The translations under genes were made by a program, and so were the position numbers. A stretch of 62,183 nucleotides of DNA, filler included, from Perkinsus olseni (taxonomy: Eukaryota), in the NCBI GenBank assembly GCA_013115125.1. It is 5 parts of 5 records of this genome, joined end to end, with 100 filler letters (N's around TTAATTAATTAA, not from the genome) between each part and the next. Parts side by side here need not be neighbours in the genome. Positions count along the whole stretch, not along the records: positions 37,515 to 49,800 come from JABANN010000797.1; 4 more parts are not named here. The stretch is one strand, 5' to 3'. Numbering within the stretch: position 1 is the stretch's first letter; the number at the start of each line of letters is the position of its first letter. This document shows positions 12,430 to 50,399 of this stretch, one piece after another. Under the pieces are notes generated by a model. That model was not told where the DNA came from, did no database searches, and saw nothing but the letters and a program-made list of their open reading frames with translations.

Positions 12430-12529
12430 NNNNNNNNNNNNNNNNNNNNNNNNNNNNNNNNNNNNNNNNNNNNTTAATTAATTAANNNNNNNNNNNNNNN
12501 NNNNNNNNNNNNNNNNNNNNNNNNNNNNN
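12430..12529. other. Assembly gap with artificial TTAATTAATTAA six-frame stop spacer
   Basis: N run + TTAATTAATTAA + N run. Identical spacers at 24949-25048, 37415-37514 and 49801-49900. Confidence 0.97.
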
Positions 12530-24737: not shown

Positions 24738-25048
24738 CTGTCGAAGTGCTTCTGCATGCAGATATCATTGACCACTTTATCAACTCTGTTGTGGACACAA
24801 GTGGGGCGTTGCGTTTGGTGCCATCACCTTTGGGGGGGGGGGGGGGGGTTGGGTGGGGGCGTGGGGGGGGTGGGGGTGGTGGTGGTGGTGGAAGAAAATA
24901 AAAGGAAAAAAAAAGAGAGCGAGAATAAATGGGGTGGTTTAAAACAAANNNNNNNNNNNNNNNNNNNNNNNNNNNNNNNNNNNNNNNNNNNNTTAATTAA
25001 TTAANNNNNNNNNNNNNNNNNNNNNNNNNNNNNNNNNNNNNNNNNNNN

Positions 25049-37007: not shown

Positions 37008-40000
37008 CCGAGTCGAATAAAACGATAAAGACTAACGCTCAGGCCGAACTGACAAGCCAATTGGAGTACAATTGTCTGGGACGACGGACTCCTGCTACGT
37101 CAGATCTCACAGAACGCTTCTCTCGCTCTCGATTCAGCCAAACCTGCTAGGGCCAGGCTAGCAAAGCCTCCCTTGAGCGTGGCGGCAGCACTGTGCTCCG
37201 CATGCATCAGTTGTGTGCATAAGAAGCAGAAAGGGACTTTACTGCAACCCTAAACGCAACTTCAACTCAGTTCAACGCACACAGAAAAATACAAGAAAAC
37301 GCACCGGAGGGCGAATCGAACGCCTGCGCCCCCCGACGCCCGGCATTTTCGGGCGCGCGCCAAGAATTTTCTTAGACGAGGCAAGATTTCTCTTGCCTCT
37401 TCAATAGTTTTCTTNNNNNNNNNNNNNNNNNNNNNNNNNNNNNNNNNNNNNNNNNNNNTTAATTAATTAANNNNNNNNNNNNNNNNNNNNNNNNNNNNNN
37501 NNNNNNNNNNNNNNCCGAGCGTTACAACACGCGACCAATGTAAATCTCGCTCGCCCTAAAATAGGCTCGCGTCATAGGTCTACAACACATCAATTTCCCT
37601 CTGGCGCCGATACTGCGGCGTCTGCTAATGCCAAGGCTACCAACTCCGGTCAGAAGGCTGAGAAGACAACAGCCGCAGTCATAGTGGATGAAGCAACATG
37701 CGCGGCGGAGCTTGTCAACGCCATCACTCTGGAGTTCCCTGACGATTCTCCGTTGTCAACAGTCACGGCAAGCGCTACTACGCAAGATGGGGAGGGGCTG
37801 GAGAATAGGCCTTCGGCATTAACAGCAGAATTCATCTTCCAACAATCAGGAGATCTGCAAGCTCATAATCTGTTATCATTAATCGACACCGGTTCTACAG
37901 CCGATTTGATCTCATTAGAAAGTGTTCTCAATGCTGGCTTTGTCGTCTCTCCATGGACTGGTTCCTACGGCACGATTCGTATGACTGAATCCTCGGCGAT
38001 GCTACAACCGTGCGGAACGGTTAGTCTGGTGGTTTCTACTCCGAAGGCAAATGCTACCTGTACCTTCTATGCAGTCCCTCGGTTAACCTACCCAGTGATA
38101 CTGGGAGTCCGCTCCTTAAGCAGGCTCGGTATCGGGATTCAATATCACCCACTAAGCTTCAAGCCCGTGGTGACTAGTGGGAATACTTTGCATGATAACA
38201 TTCTACAACCTCATACCATTGAACCACACCCACCACAAGATGCAGTCGAAGAATCTGTAAATCTTATTGTGCATGACCAAGACAAAACATCACCTATTCT
38301 ATCATCTATGGTTGAACAGAACTTTGAGGATAAGATGCCTATTGAAATCATAACAGCTGAAGGCACGGACAAGTCCAAGCCCACTTCCTCCTTTCAACTG
38401 CGAGATTTACCCTGGATTTCGGATGCTAGACCTCGGCCGAACCTGGGTGAAGCGATAGCTCGGTCCCGGTCACTAGAGAGGCAACTACCAGTCTATCAGA
38501 GAGCCCTTCTACAAGGAACTTTTCAGGATTTACTTAGCAGCCGGGTGCTACAAGTTACTTCGCCGTCTGAGTTGAGGTACTTTCTGCCAGTCCGGCCGGT
38601 GTATAAAAGGGGTGCGGGTACCTCTTTAGCTGTAACTGTACGTCTAACGGTGGATGGGAGAAAAATCAATGGGTTTCTCCGAGCTGGTTCAGCAGATTCA
38701 TCATCGTCGATCGCCCATTGTTTGACAATATGGAGGACAAGCCCCTTCTACCGGTCTCTAGACTTATCATCCGCTTTCCATGGGGTATCGTTGTCGGAGG
38801 AAGCTCAGAAGTACTGCGGCCTAGCCCTGTTTGGGGTGGTGGCGCGATGGTTGAGGATGCCATTCGGTATCCGAAACGCACCTGCCACACTCTTCCAGGT
38901 ATTGTCAACCTTACTGAGCACCATTAAGATGGAATGGCCGCCGACAATGTATGTGGACGACTTGGGGGTTATTGCTCGAACTATAGAAGAGCTTGACCAC
39001 AACGAGAGTACTATTGTACAGACTGTCCAAGCTGGCGGTTTCAACTTCCAGGACAAGAAACGGGTCTGCTCAGTTGAATCCTGTGGGGAGTTTGGCCAAT
39101 TAGGTTACAGATGGAGGCTGGCCGATGCTGTTCCGCATCGTGAGGATACCGTATTATGCAAACTCTCGTCTCGACTGTGCTCAGAAGAGAGCTTTGGATG
39201 TTTAACTACAAGATCACTAATGGCACTACTACCCACAATATATATGATCCCCTGGGTATATTCCTTCACCATTCTATCGCTGCTCGATTGTTGCTATCGT
39301 CAGTTCGAGACCAGAATGGTTCGTCTAATCTGGATAGAACCATCACTGACAAGCAGACTGAGGAGTTCGAGAACTGGGTAGAAGATTATCGACAACCACA
39401 GAGGCTCACCCACGGTACCTGAATCCGCATCGTTTGTATACGTATGCTGATGCTTCATCCCGGGCGTGGGCGGCGGTAATCTATGCTACTCCAGGATCGG
39501 CAGACGAAGGGGAGTCGACAACAGCCGTCTATCCTCTGAGGGGCATAGGCGGCATTGTGACACAGGATATGAAGTCCTGGTCCACACCCAAATTGGAATT
39601 GTATGCATTATATCGAGCATGTGTATTATTAAGGGAAGTAATTCAATCCCTTATTCCGCTGCATCAAGTGGATTTACAGGAGTGGCAGGTCTTCTCGGAT
39701 AGTGCCATTACGGTGTATCGCTTGAAGACTGGAGGTCATAAAGTATCCCCTGTCGAAGCTAAATGGTTGGGATATATAAGAAGATTTTGCCAAGAATTCC
39801 GCATTAAGGTGTATCATATTCAATCCCACATGAATCTGGCGGATGGCCCATCTAGGGGAGTATCACCACCGCCTCCTACTCACCCATCACGGTTGCTGCA
39901 AACACTTCAAGCATTGTCTGACGGGCGAAGTCTGGTGACCTTCGACCCTGAAGATCAAGGTCCAGGTCCTGCCCAAGCACAAGCTACCTTAGGGGGTCTA

Positions 40001-40913
40001 AATGAATGTGCAGCCGTGGATGGGGTTGGTCTTGAGGATGATCAAGAAGTGCCACTGGGTGACGCCATACATGTGGACGCCAATGACTTGAAGCGCCATC
40101 AAGATCAATCTATGTTAGCCAGAGCCATTATTGGGTTTCTTGGCGGAATACAGAGCGACAAGCAGTCATTGCCAAGGAGCTTACTCGAACGCGAAGCTCC
40201 ACTGTATTCTCTGCAAGAAGGGATACTCTACCGTGCAACTTATGATTCTGCTAAAGTTGCTCTATTTCCATCTGAGGACCCTTCCTTTGTTGATAAACTG
40301 ATCGATGCTGTGCATGAGAGGCTAGGCCATGCAGGTCCGTCAAAGTTGGTACAGGTCTTCACTAGCAGGTATTATGCTCCTAAACTGGCTACACTGGTCA
40401 GGAAGAGGCTGAAGACCTGTGACTGCTGTCAACGAATTAATGCGAGGAGACAACACCAGAAAACGTGGAGCAGGGTTACAATGAGAGGCATGAAGCCATT
40501 CCAAGTTTTTGGATTGGACCATATGATCATGATAGACGGCAGGGACGAGACTGATGGTCGCACTGCCCCATATAAAGCAATTCTAACTTTGACATGTGGT
40601 GTGTCATCCTTTACTATATGTCGAGCTGTGAAGACTTGTACTGTTAAGGAGACGATTAGCTAGTTATCACTGGTATTTTCGGATATTGGCTATCCTACCT
40701 GTTTAGTGGTGGATGGTTATGGCCAGAACAGCCCGTGGACAAGCTCTACACAAACTCGACAGCTTAAACAATGGGCTGCGAGATACGGAATCTATGTAGC
40801 GGTACTGCCACCACATGGACAAGGATATCAGGGATGGTTTGAGCGCCCTCATCAGAAAATAAGACGTATTCTACAGGCTAATGCTGTCTGTGGAGAGGAC
40901 ACAGCGTCATGGC

Positions 40914-40969
40914 CATCTCAATTACCTAATAGGTAATGGAGATGAATCATAGGTAATACCTATGATTCA
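40914..40969. other. Putative hAT excision footprint (8-mer TTACCTAT) frameshifting the integrase
   Basis: TTACCTA + ATAGGTAA-TGGAGATG-AATC-ATAGGTAA + TACCTAT. Collapsing to one 8-mer restores 'WPSQLPMIQLSINSLPY'. Confidence 0.8.
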
Positions 40970-41693
40970 GCTGTCGATTAACTCCTTGCCTTATGCGTCT
41001 ACATCTAATTTGTCTCCGATGTCCATGGTCTACACAAATCATGGTAGGTTGCCCGGTGAAGTTCTAGCTGAACAAGATCGGGACTCTATATTATGAGCTG
41101 TCCGACATCTCTTCTCGGACACGGAGATGGAATTTGTGAGTCGCCTGCATCAACAAGCGTCAGAAGATGTTAAGTTGAGATTCCAAGAATACGAGGAATA
41201 CTGGCAGCGGTCGAGAGCTATGTACCAGGCGGCGTTTCAACGCAGGTATGGAGCACGTCCATCGCAGGATATAGCGATCGGGGATATGGTGCTAGTGTTT
41301 GCCCCGAGTGGAGAACGAGCTCTACCAGATTTCTGCGGACCTTTCAAAGTGGCAGAGCATGTATCATCTAACATCTGCCGCATTGAACCGCTGAATGACA
41401 GGCCCTATCTCGGTGGTCATTCGACTGGGCGTGATGTAAGTTCAACCCAGTACTATTCCAACTTGGTACGTTATTACCCAAGAGAAGATGATGAATGCGC
41501 CCCTATTAGTTGGATCCAATGCTCAAAGTGCGAGGCTTGGCACAAAGTAGACTCCCTTATCTACAATAGATTCCGCAACAAGCGAGCGACATTTTACTGC
41601 AGATTTGTCGGTAAGCGTTGCGGACGGGTGGCCCAGGCCACAAGTGGTGAATGATGGTATCACCATGATGATGAGGATGTATGGCCTGTGAAG

Positions 41694-42079
41694 CGTGCTA
41701 TGCCAGCATAGTACATACGCAATNNNNNNNNNNNNNNNNNNNNNNNNNNNNNNNNNNNNNNNNNNNNNNNNNNNNNNNNNNNNNNNNNNNNNNNNNNNNN
41801 NNNNNNNNNNNNNNNNNNNNNNTAGTGTCTATCTATCACAGTGTCATATCAGTGTCTGTCTATTACATTGTCATTTCGTCATTTATCTGTGATGTCCATA
41901 GTCTTGTCGACAATAAAGTCTCGTGGACGACTTCCTCGTGCTATGCCAGCATAGTACATACGCAATAGTGTCTATCTATCACAGTGTCATATCAGTGTCT
42001 GTCTATTACATTGTCATTTCGTCATTTATCTGTGATGTTCATAGTCTTGTCGACAATAAAGTCTCGTGGACGACTTCCT
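41694..42079. repeat. 143-bp tandem repeat inside the putative LTR, spanning an N gap
   Basis: CGTGCTATGCCAGCATAG starts at 41694 and 41937. Each unit carries AATAAA. Copy number is hidden by gap 41724-41822. Confidence 0.8.
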
Positions 42080-42682
42080 CCCTTGCTGTCTTTAGACTGG
42101 CGTCGCTCGGGCGGCAGTGTCGCTATCGTGATGCATAGAGGAATCTCAAGAACGCAAGTGCCCACCTCGGGCAGCGTGTTTGGATAGACAACTAGTCGTT
42201 ATTATCACTCTATCTATTATTACCATAAACTGTCAATGGAAGGTCAGCCTGGAGTTGATAGTGAGAAGCCCAGCGGCGATAATCCATCTATTACGAGGCC
42301 AGAGAACGATGACTCTAACGGCACTCGTCAAAACGAGCTCCCGTTTCGTGTTGGTTGAAGGTTTAGAATGTGCTTCTGTTTTCTGGCGGTTCTCTCGACT
42401 TGTTGGGTGTGTTGTGATTGCTGATTAGCATCAGGGGAACGTTCGAAACTATAGTATACCGTCTGGCTGAAGGGCGTTAACTGCTAGATGACAGAGAAGC
42501 TAGAACAAGTCACATGCGGTGCGCCACGCGTTGACAGTGGGCTCTGCATCTCCCTAGTCCGCATCATTACTCTGCCTATTGTCAGTTTTATAGATTTTCT
42601 TGTGATTTTATGGCTCTTCGTTCTAAGGACGCTGATTTTGAGTACTTTTGCGCCCAGGCCAAGTCCTTGATGGGTAGTACTA

Positions 42683-45600
42683 ATGGCAGCATCGTCCGAG
42701 CGACTGGAATACCCGACGCTCGTGAATGACGTGTCAGCTTCTCAATAAGTTGAGTGTAATACTTGGAGGCTATTGCGTGTTACACTGATAGGTAACGACT
42801 TGGATCAAGACTGGCTTCTGGAGATGTGGAGTGGAGCGGACGGTGATCTCAATAGAGCTTTGAATCATGTACTGCCGAGTCCACGATGCCGCCGAATAAG
42901 CTTATGAAGGAGAGCCTTATTCTTAGGTTCTAGACTCTCCCGAAGATAAGATAAAGAGAACTGGCGGTGGGCATAAGTGAGGGATTGCCAATGGCTGACC
43001 CTGCATTGATCGCTTCGGCCTCAGGTCGAGCAGTGCTGCGGCCCCTCCCCCTCCGCCTCCGAAGAGCCCTAAGAAAAAGAAGCATCATAAGACTTCTGCT
43101 CCTCCCCCTCCCCCTGCACCTGCACCTGCTTGGGATGACGAGTAAGACTTGTAGTTCACCCTGTATACGGCACGCTAATGGAATGGAACATGTTGCTTCT
43201 GAGTTCTGTCCTCGGATTATCGCGGTCGAGAGGCTAACACCTGATCTATGACAGATATGAAGACCCATTCTTCCAAACCCCAGTACCAGCAGCTCCCCCT
43301 GCAGCTCCTGCTCAAGCGGCTCCCCCACCACCGCCACAACCACAGCAGCAGCAGCCGCCGCCGCAGCCGGCACCACCAGCTACGGTAGTTCCCCGGGAGG
43401 GCAGCTTAGATCGGATTGAACGATGTATTTCTAGGCTCCTGCCATGCAACAAGGCTATCAGCAGCAACCGATGCCACAGCAACCAGGATACCCTCCGCAG
43501 CCGCAGATGATGCCATCACAGCCAGTAATAGATCGTGGAATGCTAGTCCATTATGAGCCATGCGTGGCATGGCTACTGAATGTCAGGGAATGTATTATAC
43601 TGGGCTTCAACACCCCATGAATACTATGCCAAATATGTCGATGCCACCCCAGACGGTGCCAGGGATGATGACCATGCCAGTATGAACCTTCTATAACCCG
43701 CTCTCTACTAGGCTCGCAATTCAGCAACACTCTAGTCCCGTGCACTCGTCGCTAAGAACGGGAGGCTTTGTGTCTATTCTTGTATCTCCGAGCTATCTGT
43801 TGTGACTTAAGCGGTTATAGACCTCGATTGTGCATGCTCTCATGAAGTGAAATCTTCTCAGACACAACCTGCCATGGGGCCACCAAGCACGATGCCGGCC
43901 CAGCAGCAGCCCATGGGTCCGATGAATCCTCAGGGCTTGCAGACCCAACAGCAGATGATGTTCGTAAGAGGCCTGGTTGTCGTGACTAATTATCATTGTG
44001 CATACTCTCCCCGTAAATGCTATTCTGGCTTCGCTAGTACGTTATTGCTCCTCCTTTTCAGATTCAGTCCCAGCAACAGCAGCTACTGGTCAATTTGAAG
44101 TACCAGTTAGATACGGTAATAGAGCTCATCTCGGGTGTTAATGTGTCGTAGAGCCGCGGGAGTGTCTGCTCGTCTGTCCTATTGGTGGTGCATTGTCTTT
44201 ACCCGCTCTGCATCGTCAGTCAATCTGGTGGCTCAACTTCGATCTCTCTTTGCGACTCACTTCATGAATTATGTATGGTTGGTCAGGTCCTCGCCAATCC
44301 GGCTATGCTGCAGAACCCGATGCTAATGCAGCAGTTGTACGATACCATGTCTGTGAGTGGAATATTCATTCTCTGCCAGGGTATCGTTGATGGGTGTGTT
44401 GTCTCAGAATGCCCTGGAAGCGCCAGCTACAACTCTTCATCTTTCGGAAAAGGCTCGCCAGAATGAGCAGACGGCGCAGTTCATACAGATGATGCAGGTA
44501 GTATTAGGATTATGGCTCTTCGTCACCAGATTTTCGAGGTATTCTCGCTATTGCTGAAATAATGGGATCCGTGTTATGAATCATACCTCATTATGATCAA
44601 CTTTGCCAACACGGCCGTACGACTGCACGTTTAGGAAAAGCACCGGCGGCCCAGCTCAGTGATCTGTTCAGTCAAATTTGATTCGTCGCGATTGTCTATC
44701 TTACTTGTTATGCAGATGTCAGGCGGACGGCGTTTTTTCTGATAAGATGATACCCTGTACGTTCAGGCACAGATATCGCAGATGCTGGGTAATCCGCAGG
44801 TGGCGGCTAATCCTCAGCTCTTACAACACCTCAACACGCAAATGAATCAGCTGCGACTGATCACTATGCAACATGTAGGATGGGTGCGACGCGAGGACGA
44901 TGTCACAAGGCTGTTATATCTCTTTCTTCGCGGACTCCGTTGTAGCCCATCTCGAGGTCATGATGCTTCAGGTTGCATCGCAGAATATGCTGGCTAACCC
45001 CGCAACGTCTCTTAGCTTAACATCGCCTCTGCTGGATAAGAGTCTGGGCTTCATGTCTACACCTGATCTCAAGGAAGCTTTAGCAGGTAGTTCTGTCGGC
45101 CGTCTACGCTCATAAATAGCGTTCTGTCAGATCTGTCCGATTCGGATGACGAAGATGAGGAGTCGGACGGTGAGTGGTGGAAAGGAAAGTCGAGCTCCAG
45201 CAAGAAGTCTAAGAAGCCTGTAAGCCAAGGGACACTGTCAGTGGACGGCGACCGCTTCATGGCCTCTCTGTTCAGGATTCTACACCCGATTTGTCCGCCA
45301 CAAACCCGTTCAATGAGCCGGAGGGCGAGGATGAAGTGGATGATGAGATAGCGGCCAAGAAGAAGGATCGTAAGTCATTCGACAGTCTGTGCAGGGTTCG
45401 CCCCTGCTTGTGGTCTTGATGAGGGGCCTTCACGTGTAAAAAAGTGACTATGGGGCTCAGGTCGGAAGGGTAAGAAGCGTACATCATCAGCGAAGAAGAT
45501 TGACAAACTCATACGCAAGATAGGATTGGGCCAAGCCCCTGTTGTAGCCACAGGTAAATTAGAGTCCCAACAGTAGGCGTGATTTGAGCGTTCCGAGCAG

Positions 45601-45743
45601 GCCAGCCGCAGAGTAGCGGTATGATGATGCCCCAGACCACCCCAATGGGCGGGTACTACCCCGGTTACAATGGCCTATCGCAGCAAGGGCTGCCCACAAC
45701 TTCGAACATGATGTATCCGAGAACTACCGGATACATGATTTAG
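42683..45743 (+). CDS. Pro/Gln/Met-rich multi-exon protein with a possible N-terminal CUE/UBA-like domain
   Basis: Exon 'DLDQDWLLEMWSGADGDLNRALNH..LD' resembles CUE. It is followed by P/Q/M-rich exons and an acidic/basic C-terminal region; stop at 45743. Confidence 0.6.
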
Positions 45744-47014
45744 TTCGAAAGAGCGGTCGCAGTTGAACTGAGTTATAGTAGTCGTGTAGTTGTTCCTGCG
45801 TTCCCGAAGTTGTATTAGTATAATAGCAAGGCGAAGTACACTTCATCAGCTTACATTCATCACTCAGCCTAAGTGACGCGGTATATCAATGAAGGCGAGG
45901 CTGCCTTTTTCATCGATCGATCGAGTTTGGTTCAGTGGTTGTAATATGCGACTCTATGTCAATGCATGCCTAGTCTTCGGGATCGTGGTGTTCCATGCCG
46001 GTCATTGTTCTCATCAGAATAAATTGTGAGGAGCTGAGACGGGGATTTTTTGAAGATGGAGTATGGGACGGATTCTGAAGTCGGGGGCATCTTCCTGAAT
46101 GGCACACCAGCTGGACGCGACGATACTCGTGTCCTGCCGAGTGTCAGATCTTGCCAATTCTCGTCGCTCTGACTATAGGCCTCAATCTTCCGAGTTGGAG
46201 AAGTCCGAGTCTGTAATAAAAACAATGCAACACGTGAAAATGAGGCGACTACGCCACATGCAGGAATAAGGCCACTATGAAACTTTCAGAAATGAGGCTA
46301 TCGTCGCGCGTGGCGTATGAACAGTTTCAACTCAGAAACATCAGAGTTAGAAAATAAGTCATTTTCCACAAGAAGATGGGCGGCAGCCGGCGACATTCGT
46401 TCATGAGTGCTTCAATCACACCGCGCCACTTTGCATAGTGCTCTCATTCATGCGTGTTACATTTATTTAGCTTCAGACTGCATAAGCAAGTACGGAGCTC
46501 CGGTGAAAGTTTTCGTGCACATCAGACCTCAAAGATGGTCATACGCTCTCTTTATAATCCTGGTCAGTATCTTGTTGTGAGGAAATGTCTCCACCTCCCA
46601 GCTCAATCCAACTCAATAATGTGTGGATTATGGAAGACAATATCAACCCGAGGAAGTGACGCTAAGTTACGACGTACACTTGTCACTACGCCTAACACTG
46701 AGATCACTTGAGTAGGCTATATTTCATGAAAACGATGATAATGCTGTCTGCCGAAGCAGTTAAACCTCATATACGGATTAAAGGCGACCATTTGAGGGTC
46801 AAAATTGCACGAAACCGCGAGTGGATCAGAGAAGTAGAAGTATACCGGTAATCGCTTTCGTAGAATGGCGAGCTCACTGGCATGGTCTGACTGTGACAGC
46901 GGTCAGCCGATGTTCTGGGTCAACACGAAGCTCCGTCACTTTCCCGGCAACTAACGAGCCTCGAATAGTTGTACTGGCTGGACCCCACAACTTGAAGCTG
47001 ACATCCCAATGGCA

Positions 47015-47031
47015 GGGCCAACTTGGCCAAG
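47015..47031. other. Putative hAT excision footprint (8-mer GGGCCAAG), in-frame +9 nt
   Basis: GGGCCAA + CTT + GGCCAAG; gives 'AWPSWPC' where 'AWPC' is expected. Confidence 0.6.
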
Positions 47032-49023
47032 CAGGGAATAGCAAGATGCCCTCGTTTTCGTCATCCATTGGTTGTAGTAGCATGTAGGTCAAGGCATTGT
47101 TCATGACGGCATACTGATCGGCCCAGGGTGGATAATCCTGTAAATGGGGAGCGAAGACAGAGAATCGATAGCCCTTAGCCGATGGATACTTGGCCCGGGA
47201 CACCACCATGGACTGGGCTTCTTTTGCCAAACCAAGGAGAACGGCGTCCATCACGTTCTGGTTCCATCCCTCGTCCGAAGTAAAACGACGTTCGCTGAAG
47301 GTAATCCTTCCCATAGATAGGAGTTCTTCAGACGACTTACTCGTGATGTAACGGTAAGGGTGAACAGCATAAAGGTCAGCGTTCTCGACATTAGTAGGGG
47401 TAGGCGTACAGACCTCGCAGGGAGCCAACTTAGTTCCGCCATTTTTACTTTTGGTTGTGGGAACGGTTGGTAGAATGGATAGGAGCTTCTTCCATCTAGC
47501 CCGTTGCTCCGGTTGAGTGATATCAGAAGGCAGTTTGACGAGTCGTGTAACAACAGCCAATAGACCAGAGATGGTGGGATGGTCATTCATAGAACAGTTA
47601 GTACCAGCGACCATGTCCTTGTAACCAGGACATTGCCAGGTTTCGATAGACTGTGTTGGGAAGAGCACCATCTTGCCGCGAGAGTCCCTATGAGTTCTCC
47701 ATTGGGAGAAGAAATTGACGACGGCATCCATCAAGGGTAGGTTGGCCTTCATAACTTCGATATCCTTAGTCTAAGCGTAATGGTCCAACATGAGAAGGCT
47801 GAGATCTAGCGCACCTTGTTGGAGGTTGTAGTGATTCCATCGGTCCTCGGCGTAGTACCAAATCGGCGGGTCTGACCTGCCCGCTCGTCCACAGCCATAA
47901 TAACTCTGTGGATGTGTGGTACCGATCAATGGGTGCACGTACTCATCCCGGAAGGCAACTGGGCCCTTCATGTCCGGGTAGTACAGAGTCGTCTTTGCCA
48001 CGGCGCCGGTCAGAGTGTTCATATACGATTCGAATAAAGTCTGCTGCATCGAGAAATCCCCAGCCACAAGCATGTTGTAGTACGGTAAACGCACATTTTG
48101 CCACCAATTCAAGCCTCCCCACTGACGGAAGTCGGGATCCTCCCGTTGTGCAGTGAAGAGCATACCATTGAACTTGAGCGGGAGTGGTTGTCGAGTTTGA
48201 GTGGCCTGAATGTAACGGTGGAGGGCATATTTCTCATTCACCAGCGGAGCGTTCGGACCGGAGATGTTAATCCAACTCTTACTCCAGAAGCCTCTCCACC
48301 AAGCCACATGACGTTCCCATGCCGGTCCCACCGCGTAGGTATTCAAAATAGCTTCAGCATCCGCGATGGCCTCCGACACAGATCCCTCTTCTATCGTGAC
48401 AACAGAGATAAAGCTCGTGAAGGTGTGGCGATGAACGGGCGCCTTGGTTCGGACAACTCCCTCCGACACCCCGCTAACCGGCTCAGAGAATCTCCAAATG
48501 GCAACGGTAGACCTGTCTTTCAGCCTATCCATGAAACTGCTGGCCGCTGAAATCAGGTTCAACTGTTTCAAAGTCTGATCCACGAAGTTGGTGCCGTTGT
48601 TCCAGTGTGCCCACCCGATAATCCCATCATTGGCGTGAGACACATAGAAATCCGCGCTTATGTCGTAGGTGACACAGTCGAAATCTGGTTTCTTCTTTGA
48701 CGGGGATGGTCGCGGAAGTTCTGCTGTGGCAGTGGCGCTCACTTTAGTTGGGGAGCTGATGTTCACGACCAGGATGTCGTGGTTGGCATCGACGTACGCA
48801 ACGATCCGGATAGGAGGGTCTCCAATATCGATCAAGACAGTGTCGGTGCTGGCGTTCAGCACCTACACACAATTACAAGAATTAGGCAGTGAATTCGTAA
48901 GGGCCGCTTCCTGCCAGGAAGGCTATGACTCACCTGCTTGAAGGGTGTCGAGGCTCCTGAAGTCCACGGACTTGGCGAAATATTAAAAGTGACCTTCCCG
49001 ACTTTCATGAGCTCGCCGGCTTC

Positions 49024-49045
49024 GTTCCAACTTGGAACTTCCAAG
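49024..49045. other. Putative hAT excision footprint (8-mer GTTCCAAG), +14 nt frameshift
   Basis: GTTCCAA + CTTGGAAC + TTCCAAG, exact. Collapsing it restores 'DQRAWNEAGELMKVG'. Confidence 0.82.
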
Positions 49046-50399
49046 CCCGCTGATCGGATATGAGAAGTCCCATGATGGGATCCTGCTCGTTCTTGTTATC
49101 AACAAAGACATTTGCAGCTAAGCCACCGTTGCCGATTGGAATCGAGTTGACGTAGGTGGTAGCATCCTTCTCTGGAGAAAGATCCGTCCAAGTCACGAGA
49201 GGGGGCTCGTAGGAGCAACCCGTCCTGACGGCGAGAAAGCCGAGCAGAAGGGCCAGACACAAGGGCATTTTAATAAAATGTATACTATGGCGCTTTGTTA
49301 TCGGCATCTTCGTGAATTGTTGTAAACGAATCTTGTCTATTCGACCAGTATTAACAGATATCGAACGAGTCTGAATCGAGTGGGGTACACGGTACACCGT
49401 CGCTAGAACGGACCTACCAGGAATCTCATAACTCGAAGCGCCGAAGATTGTCACGTGGCTCAGTTGACTCTAACGCAAGAGTGAAGAAGCAACTGTGTAG
49501 GCAGCATAGCTAAAGGCTAAGCAGCGCAACCATAGATACAATACTAAGGATACCATTCTCATTCCTCAGCATTATCACACATAAGGAAGCATCAGATCAG
49601 CAATACTCAGTACCTCAAACACTTAGGAATGAGCCTTTCACAGCTCTGTATACTGTAACAAGATCCCAGTCACTCATCTTGTGTCTGCGTACACAGTAGC
49701 ACGCGAGCGCACACGGGAAAATACGTTCGTAAAATCCCAAAGAATACGGGAGTGCGGGAAGGAAAACACCAAACCTGAAACCCGAGCATTGCTCGGCGAG
49801 NNNNNNNNNNNNNNNNNNNNNNNNNNNNNNNNNNNNNNNNNNNNTTAATTAATTAANNNNNNNNNNNNNNNNNNNNNNNNNNNNNNNNNNNNNNNNNNNN
49901 ACATTTAAAGTGATGCCCTTCAATGGCTTTTTCTCTCGGGGCACTTTGAATTTTGGTACCACCGTGCGAGCGTCAGCCCATTCCCTGCTATAGCTGCGTG
50001 TCCCCGCGAATGCATCACTCTGCGGCCATCGGAACCCTTCCGTCGACCTGAGCGGTTCTTCAGTCTACGAGCGTTCAGATACGGGCGTCTATGCGTTCGT
50101 CGGCAGTCGAGACGGCGATATATTTCATCTCCTACTAGATGGTCGCGGGCTCACGTGTCTCGGACGAGTGAGTATTCGTCCAGACTTTCCGATCTTGTAT
50201 TAGCTGTTCCTGTAGAACCCTGAGTTACATTTTGTTTCTCTATGGCCTCTTTTTCCCTTTCGCATTGGGCGTAGAGTATCATAGTTGTTCGAAGGAACAA
50301 CATCATATATACTGGCAGTACATTTAGAAGGAATCGAGCAGTATTATATGTTGTAGAGAACGGCTTTTGTCCTGCTACCGTATGAGAACAACTTGGTCA

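Follow-up and report, generated by a model that had tools for sequence, protein, structure and literature searches.

The DNA analysed here, referred to as the window (62,183 nt), consists of five pieces of ~12.3 kb each that are linked by N44-TTAATTAATTAA-N44 (12430-12529, 24949-25048, 37415-37514, and 49801-49900), and arguments from neighbourhood therefore hold only inside one piece. The fourth piece (37515-49800) contains a retroelement whose integrase ends in a CW-like four-Cys finger. The features of the element are listed in Table 1.

Table 1. Coordinates of the retroelement and its CW-like finger, counted along the window
Feature	Position	Strand	Description
pol, first frame	37516..39381	+	DTGS aspartic protease motif 37885-37896; reverse transcriptase RVT_1 38695-39072; YVDD 38950-38961
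pol, second frame	39362..40936	+	Pao-peptidase PF05380 39425-39703; HHCC integrase zinc domain PF17921 40280-40444; integrase catalytic core D 40511-25, D 40706-20, E 40835-52
Integrase core-to-CTD linker	40945..41096	+	Third frame, past a frameshift near 40936-40945; ends at in-frame TGA 41094-96
Integrase C-terminal region	41097..41510	+	Predicted long helix (residues 8-51 of P0001), then beta-rich SH3-like part with GPF motif (GPFKV 41337-41351, within FCGPFKV)
CW-like four-Cys finger	41511..41621	+	W139-x2-C142-x2-C145-x2-W148-H...F166-x-C168-x6-C175
Post-finger tail and pol stop	41622..41654	+	Ten basic/neutral residues GRVAQATSGE; TGA 41652-54
Repeat starting at pol stop	41655..42083	+	LTR-like edge ~41655-41658; 143-nt unit in tandem, starting at 41694 and broken by assembly gap 41724-41822

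At its 5' end, the element is cut short at 37515, where the joined piece begins. What is present of pol is readily recognised by Pfam, with matches to RVT_1 in the first frame (E 3.9e-11) and to the HHCC zinc domain in the second (E 1.5e-10). Weak matches to SH3_Tf2-1 / Integrase_p58_C were found in the integrase C-terminal region of relatives. The last stop-to-stop frame (41097-41654, plus strand) encodes 185 aa. Its GPF motif is followed by WIQCSKCEAWHKV...FYCRFVGKRC (41511-21), and its translation ends in ...APISWIQCSKCEAWHKVDSLIYNRFRNKRATFYCRFVGKRCGRVAQATSGE before the stop; after FCGPFKV, the frame reads SWIQCSKCEAWHKVDSLIYNRFRNKRATFYCRFVGKRCGRVAQATSGE-stop. W139 is encoded by TGG at 41511-13 and the fourth Cys by TGC at 41619-21. 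The stretch from the second Trp to the fourth Cys is strongly basic (NRFRNKRATFYCRFVGKRCGR). The initial annotation had described a GPF motif followed by a Trp/Cys motif that runs to the stop, and this description was confirmed, with the coordinates 41511-41654 exact.

The pol gene is broken. Its frame changes near 39380 and again at 40936-40945, and it is interrupted by an in-frame TAG (40661-63) and an in-frame TGA (41094-96). A reassignment of stop codons was rejected because two kinds of stop occur together with two frameshifts. An assembly error as the cause was likewise unsupported. Contigs from three sequencing runs (X3, X4, and X19) matched 39362-41723 without a single differing letter or indel, X3 being possibly the source of the DNA and hence not independent; the stops and frameshifts are therefore not errors of this assembly alone. 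The copy in the window is a dead, inactive relic that is truncated at its 5' end. The contig depth of the internal part of the element was 82.6 compared to 86.1 for another contig of the same run, a weak hint that the copy number of the element is low. No second copy was found when the element was compared by BLAST with the whole window. Metatranscriptome contigs of X19 covered 29 of 30 bins of the element at a depth of ~4-9, for which DNA carry-over is a possible source. From the raw RNA run X24, 0 reads were obtained, which does not count as a test of transcription.

The frame had been proposed to stop at a putative LTR edge, and this holds, as the stop at 41652-54 abuts a repeat. In one DNA run, a separate contig matched 41658-41723 with 3 differences and carried unrelated sequence before 41658. 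These observations fit an LTR edge at about 41655-58. A pair of LTRs cannot be defined because the 5' LTR is missing at the edge of the piece; what is seen is the 3' repeat edge and a tandem 143-nt unit. This unit begins at 41694 and is repeated in tandem at 41823-41937 and 41966-42080. In X3 and X4, it assembled into a 173-nt contig that matches 41694-41723 at either end, and in X19 a 173-nt contig matched the region of the unit at one end only. The contig of the unit had a depth of 137.6 in X3, compared to 82.6 for the element body. A tandem unit of 143 nt is unusual for an LTR, and the array may be an LTR-internal satellite or the remnants of tandem LTRs.

Of the recognisable genes, the nearest (DUF5703_N / GH95-like, minus strand, 46874-48862) is located ~5.2 kb from the element. 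The initial annotation had placed the element just upstream of a gene and had taken this position as consistent with targeting of genic chromatin. This argument carries no weight because the insertion is a single, dead one and the GH95-like gene is encoded on the other strand and faces the element with its 3' end. This host gene, which matches DUF5703_N and the GH95 catalytic domain, is itself split by an in-frame TAG (47771-73), which could reflect an unrecognised intron or a pseudogene. Downstream of the element, frames of low complexity with much Pro, Gln, and Ala occur on both strands at 42930-44100. No Pfam family matched these frames, which may be exons of a gene with introns.

Relatives of the element and conservation of the integrase tail

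Relatives were collected by phmmer, with the 185-aa piece as the query, in an exhaustive search over 1.84 billion representative proteins (E<=1e-3). Eight proteins were retrieved. Five of them (P0002-P0006) were integrase relatives with E from 1.8e-44 to 6.2e-18, and one was a 2374-aa polyprotein-like sequence that aligned at residues 59-128 only. The other two (P0007 and P0009) aligned to the tail only and were non-transposon proteins according to Pfam. When the C-terminal part of P0003, a protein from Perkinsus chesapeaki, was used in a word-based search, P0010, a hypothetical protein of Perkinsus olseni, and P0011 (40% identity) were added. A further search for homologous proteins with the 185-aa piece, at near and longer lengths, gave no match, and a scan of metagenome contigs for related loci gave 51 pattern matches with 0 confirmed. 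In the window, integrase and finger follow each other without a break in the final frame, and this frame is itself separated from the remainder of the broken pol. In P0002, P0010, and P0011, the finger and the integrase are contiguous within single polyproteins.

To which family does the element belong? A Pao-peptidase domain (PF05380) was detected between the reverse transcriptase and the integrase, just above its cut-off in the window copy (23.6 bits versus 22.3) and with higher scores in P0003, P0010, and P0011 (57.6, 54.1, and 66.0 bits, respectively). The PF05380 region, the PR-RT-(RH)-IN order, and the HHCC integrase are all shared with BEL/Pao elements. The presence of PF05380 above the cut-off together with the PR-RT-IN order thus supports, at the level of domain content, the BEL/Pao assignment made in the initial annotation. 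One point of difference is that BEL/Pao is described as a metazoan subclass in PMC3118150, whereas the named relatives found here come from the alveolate Perkinsus. Two minor matches were noted in P0003. Residues 1545-1643, on the integrase CTD, gave a marginal match to the EVE domain (23.5 bits versus a cut-off of 23). Among the other scanned members, the EVE domain appeared only in P0006, far below the cut-off (12.2 bits, E 0.18), and the match was set aside as marginal and unrepeated above the cut-off. In the gag-like N-terminus, residues 288-311 weakly resembled a CCCH-type zinc finger (19.3 bits versus a cut-off of 20.5, E 0.0011).

The conservation of the tail was assessed in six transposon-borne tails, namely the window copy, P0002, P0003, P0005, P0010, and P0011. 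P0004 and P0006 end short of the tail and were left outside the tail counts. All four Cys residues were present in five of the six tails; P0003, which is a partial record, lacks the stretch with the third and fourth Cys. When the tandem copies of the motif in P0007 (two) and P0009 (three) are included, there are 11 instances of the module in 8 proteins. Both Trp and the first two Cys were found in all 11 instances, and the third and fourth Cys in 10 of 11. The initial annotation had proposed the conservation of both Trp and all four Cys in other copies as a check, and in these relatives it holds with the exceptions given. The spacing is also regular. The first and second Cys are separated by two residues in 9 of 11 instances and by four in the two Perkinsus copies (CSNPNC / CSNAKC), the second and third Cys are separated by 20-22 residues, and C3-x6-C4 holds in all 10 instances having both. 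Two positions ahead of the third Cys stands Phe (8 of 10) or Val (2 of 10), and never Trp (0/10). A His follows the second Trp in 7 of 11 instances.

Family members shared 33-56% identity over the 39-column tail, compared to 34-48% over the upstream 137 residues. This similarity of the two ranges indicates that the tail and the integrase CTD are under similar constraint. An identity of 33-56% also means that the related records are not copies of one recent sequence. Judged from these alignments, the tail is a real, conserved four-Cys domain at the extreme C-terminus of the integrase of this family, and one that goes unrecognised at current thresholds.

The two non-transposon proteins have no transposon domains and are rich in Arg, Pro, and Ala. 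Their modules, located at residues 330-364 and 396-431 of P0007 and at residues 27-61, 171-205, and 239-273 of P0009, follow the pattern W-L-G-C-D-x-C-x2-W...F-x-C-x6-C. Such a tandem arrangement is associated with reader modules. The integrase tail may have its host relatives, or its source, in P0007 and P0009.

Relation to CW and PHD fingers

Pfam matched zf-CW (PF07496) with 19.6 bits (E 9.2e-4) in the 185-aa piece and 21.3 bits (E 2.6e-4) in the 61-aa tail, both below the gathering cut-off of 27.5 bits, and the alignment covered profile positions 2-30 of 47 only. It was the sole Pfam family with E < 1e-3 for the tail. It was also the commonest family among the tails, matching three of eight, while the other five had no zf-CW match at E<=10. 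Among the relatives, P0005 scored 14.8 bits and P0009 scored 11.5 bits, and no zf-CW match at E<=1 was found in P0002, P0010, or P0011. Matches to PHD or PHD_ash2p_like were weak (E 0.013-0.15 in P0007 and P0009; 0.018-0.021 among the eight tails). In other words, in the comparison of zf-CW and PHD profiles suggested with the initial annotation, zf-CW was the best match and PHD the weaker one, but the zf-CW score remained below the gathering cut-off.

Searches against the PDB and a protein atlas pointed in the same direction. In PDB profile searches with the tails, the CW chains of MORC3/MORC4 came first, with non-significant E of 0.055-0.1 over 14-17 residues, and the PHD fingers of CFP1, BPTF, and KDM7 scored nearly as high. 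A single-sequence PDB search with the tail placed the PHD of SHPRH at E 0.6. The top match in that search, a choline-binding-repeat-like surface protein (E 0.015), was discarded as compositional, since it reflects aromatic repeats. In the atlas, which compares language-model features, 17 of 30 neighbours were PF07496 clusters (best 0.94, with 214 of 256 features shared), at a recognition value of 2015 that is below the level where a high score is strong evidence. The same three CW clusters led for the tail of P0011 (0.78-0.80). By Pfam, PDB profiles, and the atlas alike, CW is the nearest known family.

Two AlphaFold models were obtained, both of moderate confidence (mean pLDDT 66.4 and 69.8, pTM 0.43 and 0.38). 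The two models predict the same topology for the tail, which is a hairpin (138-141/148-151), a helix (153-158), and a second hairpin (165-168/173-176), with pLDDT of ~70-76. Foldseek with a moderate-confidence model retrieved nothing at E<=1e-3, and the CW domain of SDG8 ranked 22nd, over 20 columns with an rmsd of 1.1. With the model of the 185-aa piece, Foldseek again gave no match at E<=1e-3; Tudor-PHD of PHF1, Ty3 integrase (7q5b_C), and the integrase CTDs of HIV-1/MVV appeared at E 0.7-3.4. These matches are suggestive only. The best VIA-align neighbours, from a wide search and a second look, were zinc-ribbon-like chains such as RbpA, Rpb12, and small ribosomal proteins (Z 2.5-2.7), and no CW chain was listed at Z>=2 for the moderate-confidence models. 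Structure prediction, which had been proposed as a check on the finger, thus gave two models that agree on the tail topology, but neither a CW nor a PHD fold was retrieved, which is not taken to indicate that the fold is a different one.

How close is the finger to a canonical CW domain? Like the CW domains of MORC3/MORC4, ZCWPW1, and SDG8, it has a W-x2-C-x2(4)-C-x2-W hairpin with both cage Trp in CW spacing, a total of four Cys, and a size of about 40-50 aa. The C-x4-C variant is also found in canonical CW domains. However, in a canonical CW domain a third Trp is conserved two positions ahead of the third Cys, where the finger has Phe or Val, and the C3-C4 spacing is longer than the x6 of the finger. 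The second half of the finger also differs in the models, in which it is predicted to be a helix followed by a beta-hairpin. Thus, the proposal of a CW-type zinc finger stands with respect to the four Cys, the two Trp, and the nearest family, but not with respect to the profile score (21.3 against 27.5 bits) or the third Trp. The finger is best described from its sequence as CW-like and set apart from membership of PF07496.

A resemblance to PHD fingers (PF00628) is found in the 'x-[IL]-[QG]-C-D-x-C-x-x-W-[FH]' stretch, which matches the PHD core. Unlike a PHD finger, which has eight ligands (C4HC3), the finger has four conserved Cys and one putative zinc site. It also lacks the C-x2-C pair upstream, its H-x2-C position is not conserved, and it has no additional pair of ligands. 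An identity as a PHD finger was rejected because only four of the eight ligands are conserved. The first half of the finger is related by homology or convergence to the CW/PHD zinc knuckle and has both cage Trp, and its second half is distinct.

Possible roles of the finger

The finger may serve as a tether between the intasome and chromatin, most likely through a histone H3 tail that is read by the Trp pair. We favour this model tentatively and rate it slightly below an even chance. In molecular terms, the peptide encoded by 41511-41621 is a conserved domain of ~37 residues with four Cys that presumably hold one zinc. It is fused after the GPY/F SH3-like domain at the integrase C-terminus in a small BEL/Pao-like lineage that is also present in P. 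chesapeaki and P. olseni. The N-terminal half (W-x2-C-x2/4-C-x2-W) is a CW/PHD-type beta-hairpin zinc knuckle that retains the two Trp which, in MORC-type CW, provide the floor and one wall of the methyl-lysine cage. The C-terminal half (predicted helix, F/V-x-C-x6-C) is shorter than that of canonical CW and different from it. With the cDNA ends held by the integrase core and CTD, the finger would dock the intasome on its chromatin ligand, probably the N-terminal tail of histone H3 bound by the Trp pair, and this docking may bias the choice of insertion site.

PMC5811534 describes the second CW Trp as the 'right wall' in the methyl-lysine cage, and attributes the lack of H3K4me3 binding by the MORC2 CW to the replacement of the first Trp (the 'floor') by Thr496. 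The pair W426 and W435 of MORC4 cages a side chain, according to PMC7596504.

The proposed role of the finger would be functionally analogous to that of the chromovirus chromodomain. In chromoviruses (Ty3/gypsy, e.g. Tf1, MAGGY), a chromodomain at the C-terminus of the integrase tethers integration to marked chromatin, and this chromodomain is the classic example of a natural reader module fused to an integrase. In both cases, a reader-type module, putative for the finger, is located at the C-terminus of an LTR-retrotransposon integrase after GPY/F, and a tethering role is proposed. Unlike the chromovirus module, the finger is a zinc finger and not a chromodomain, and its host element bears a Pao peptidase. 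Pfam found no chromodomain at E<=1 in the window pieces, P0002-P0006, P0010, or P0011. By this analogy, the parallel with chromoviruses is functional only. An independent recruitment of a reader by this lineage, as suggested in the initial annotation, is plausible. A more specific version of the tethering model is that a BEL/Pao-like lineage of protists (Perkinsus and relatives) captured a host CW/PHD-like reader, whose kin persist in tandem in host proteins such as P0007 and P0009, and uses it to steer integration to an H3 methylation state. The finger would then be convergent with chromoviruses and would represent an undescribed short CW subtype. In this full form, we consider the proposal unlikely. 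Our literature coverage, from which subscription journals and Repbase reports were mostly absent, included no paper joining zf-CW or a CW-type finger to retrotransposon integrases.

A rather doubtful alternative, though the best of the rivals, is a role for the finger as a generic nucleic-acid-binding zinc ribbon or knuckle, which would extend the non-specific DNA/RNA binding of the CTD without reading any mark. The best structural neighbours are of the zinc-ribbon type (RbpA, Rpb12, and L33-like ribosomal proteins), but with Z of only 2.0-2.7 and in an arrangement that is common. The strongly basic stretch from the second Trp to the fourth Cys would also suit such binding, although the non-transposon modules of P0007 and P0009 do not share its basic residues. 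Binding to DNA is possible even for a true CW domain, as PMC7596504 describes for the MORC4 CW with its basic patch of K460/R462/R463. What a zinc ribbon leaves unexplained are the two invariant, CW-spaced Trp and the consistent ranking of CW in Pfam, the PDB, and the atlas.

It is less probable still that the finger binds a host protein other than a histone, or that it has a role in nuclear import or multimerisation, which we regard as quite unlikely. The integrases of Ty1, Ty3, Ty5, MLV, and HIV dock on specific host factors, and the terminal position of the finger is where other integrases carry host-factor-binding motifs, a positional analogy that is consistent with such a role. A CW-type cage can also serve protein-protein contacts, because the Trp pair in the CW of MORC2 and MORC4 contacts the ATPase domain of the same protein (Arg or Met side chains) and not a histone, as described in PMC5811534 and PMC7596504. 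On the other hand, no candidate partner is indicated, and the tandem modules in P0007 and P0009 suggest a ligand that is generic and abundant. That the motif is a functionless product of chance or of decaying read-through, to which the dead window copy and the loss of the third and fourth Cys in P0003 might point, is very improbable given that the motif is kept in five of six tails from Perkinsus and other sources, with its Trp and Cys invariant and with the tail as well conserved as the adjoining integrase domain.

Integration-site choice sets the harm that a retroelement does to its host and is the basis of aiming retroviral vectors. If the tethering model is true, a second, unrelated reader at the same position of the integrase would make the fusion of readers to integrases a recurrent evolutionary solution, and the finger would offer a very small (~40 aa) natural targeting domain for study. 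The analysis also brings to light a short CW-like module that is missed at current Pfam thresholds, and it flags Pao-peptidase-bearing elements outside animals. Perkinsus is an alveolate parasite of molluscs, and P0003 (P. chesapeaki) and P0010 (P. olseni) are full PF05380 polyproteins in an alveolate. These Perkinsus Pao elements may represent a non-metazoan branch or a transfer from mollusc hosts.
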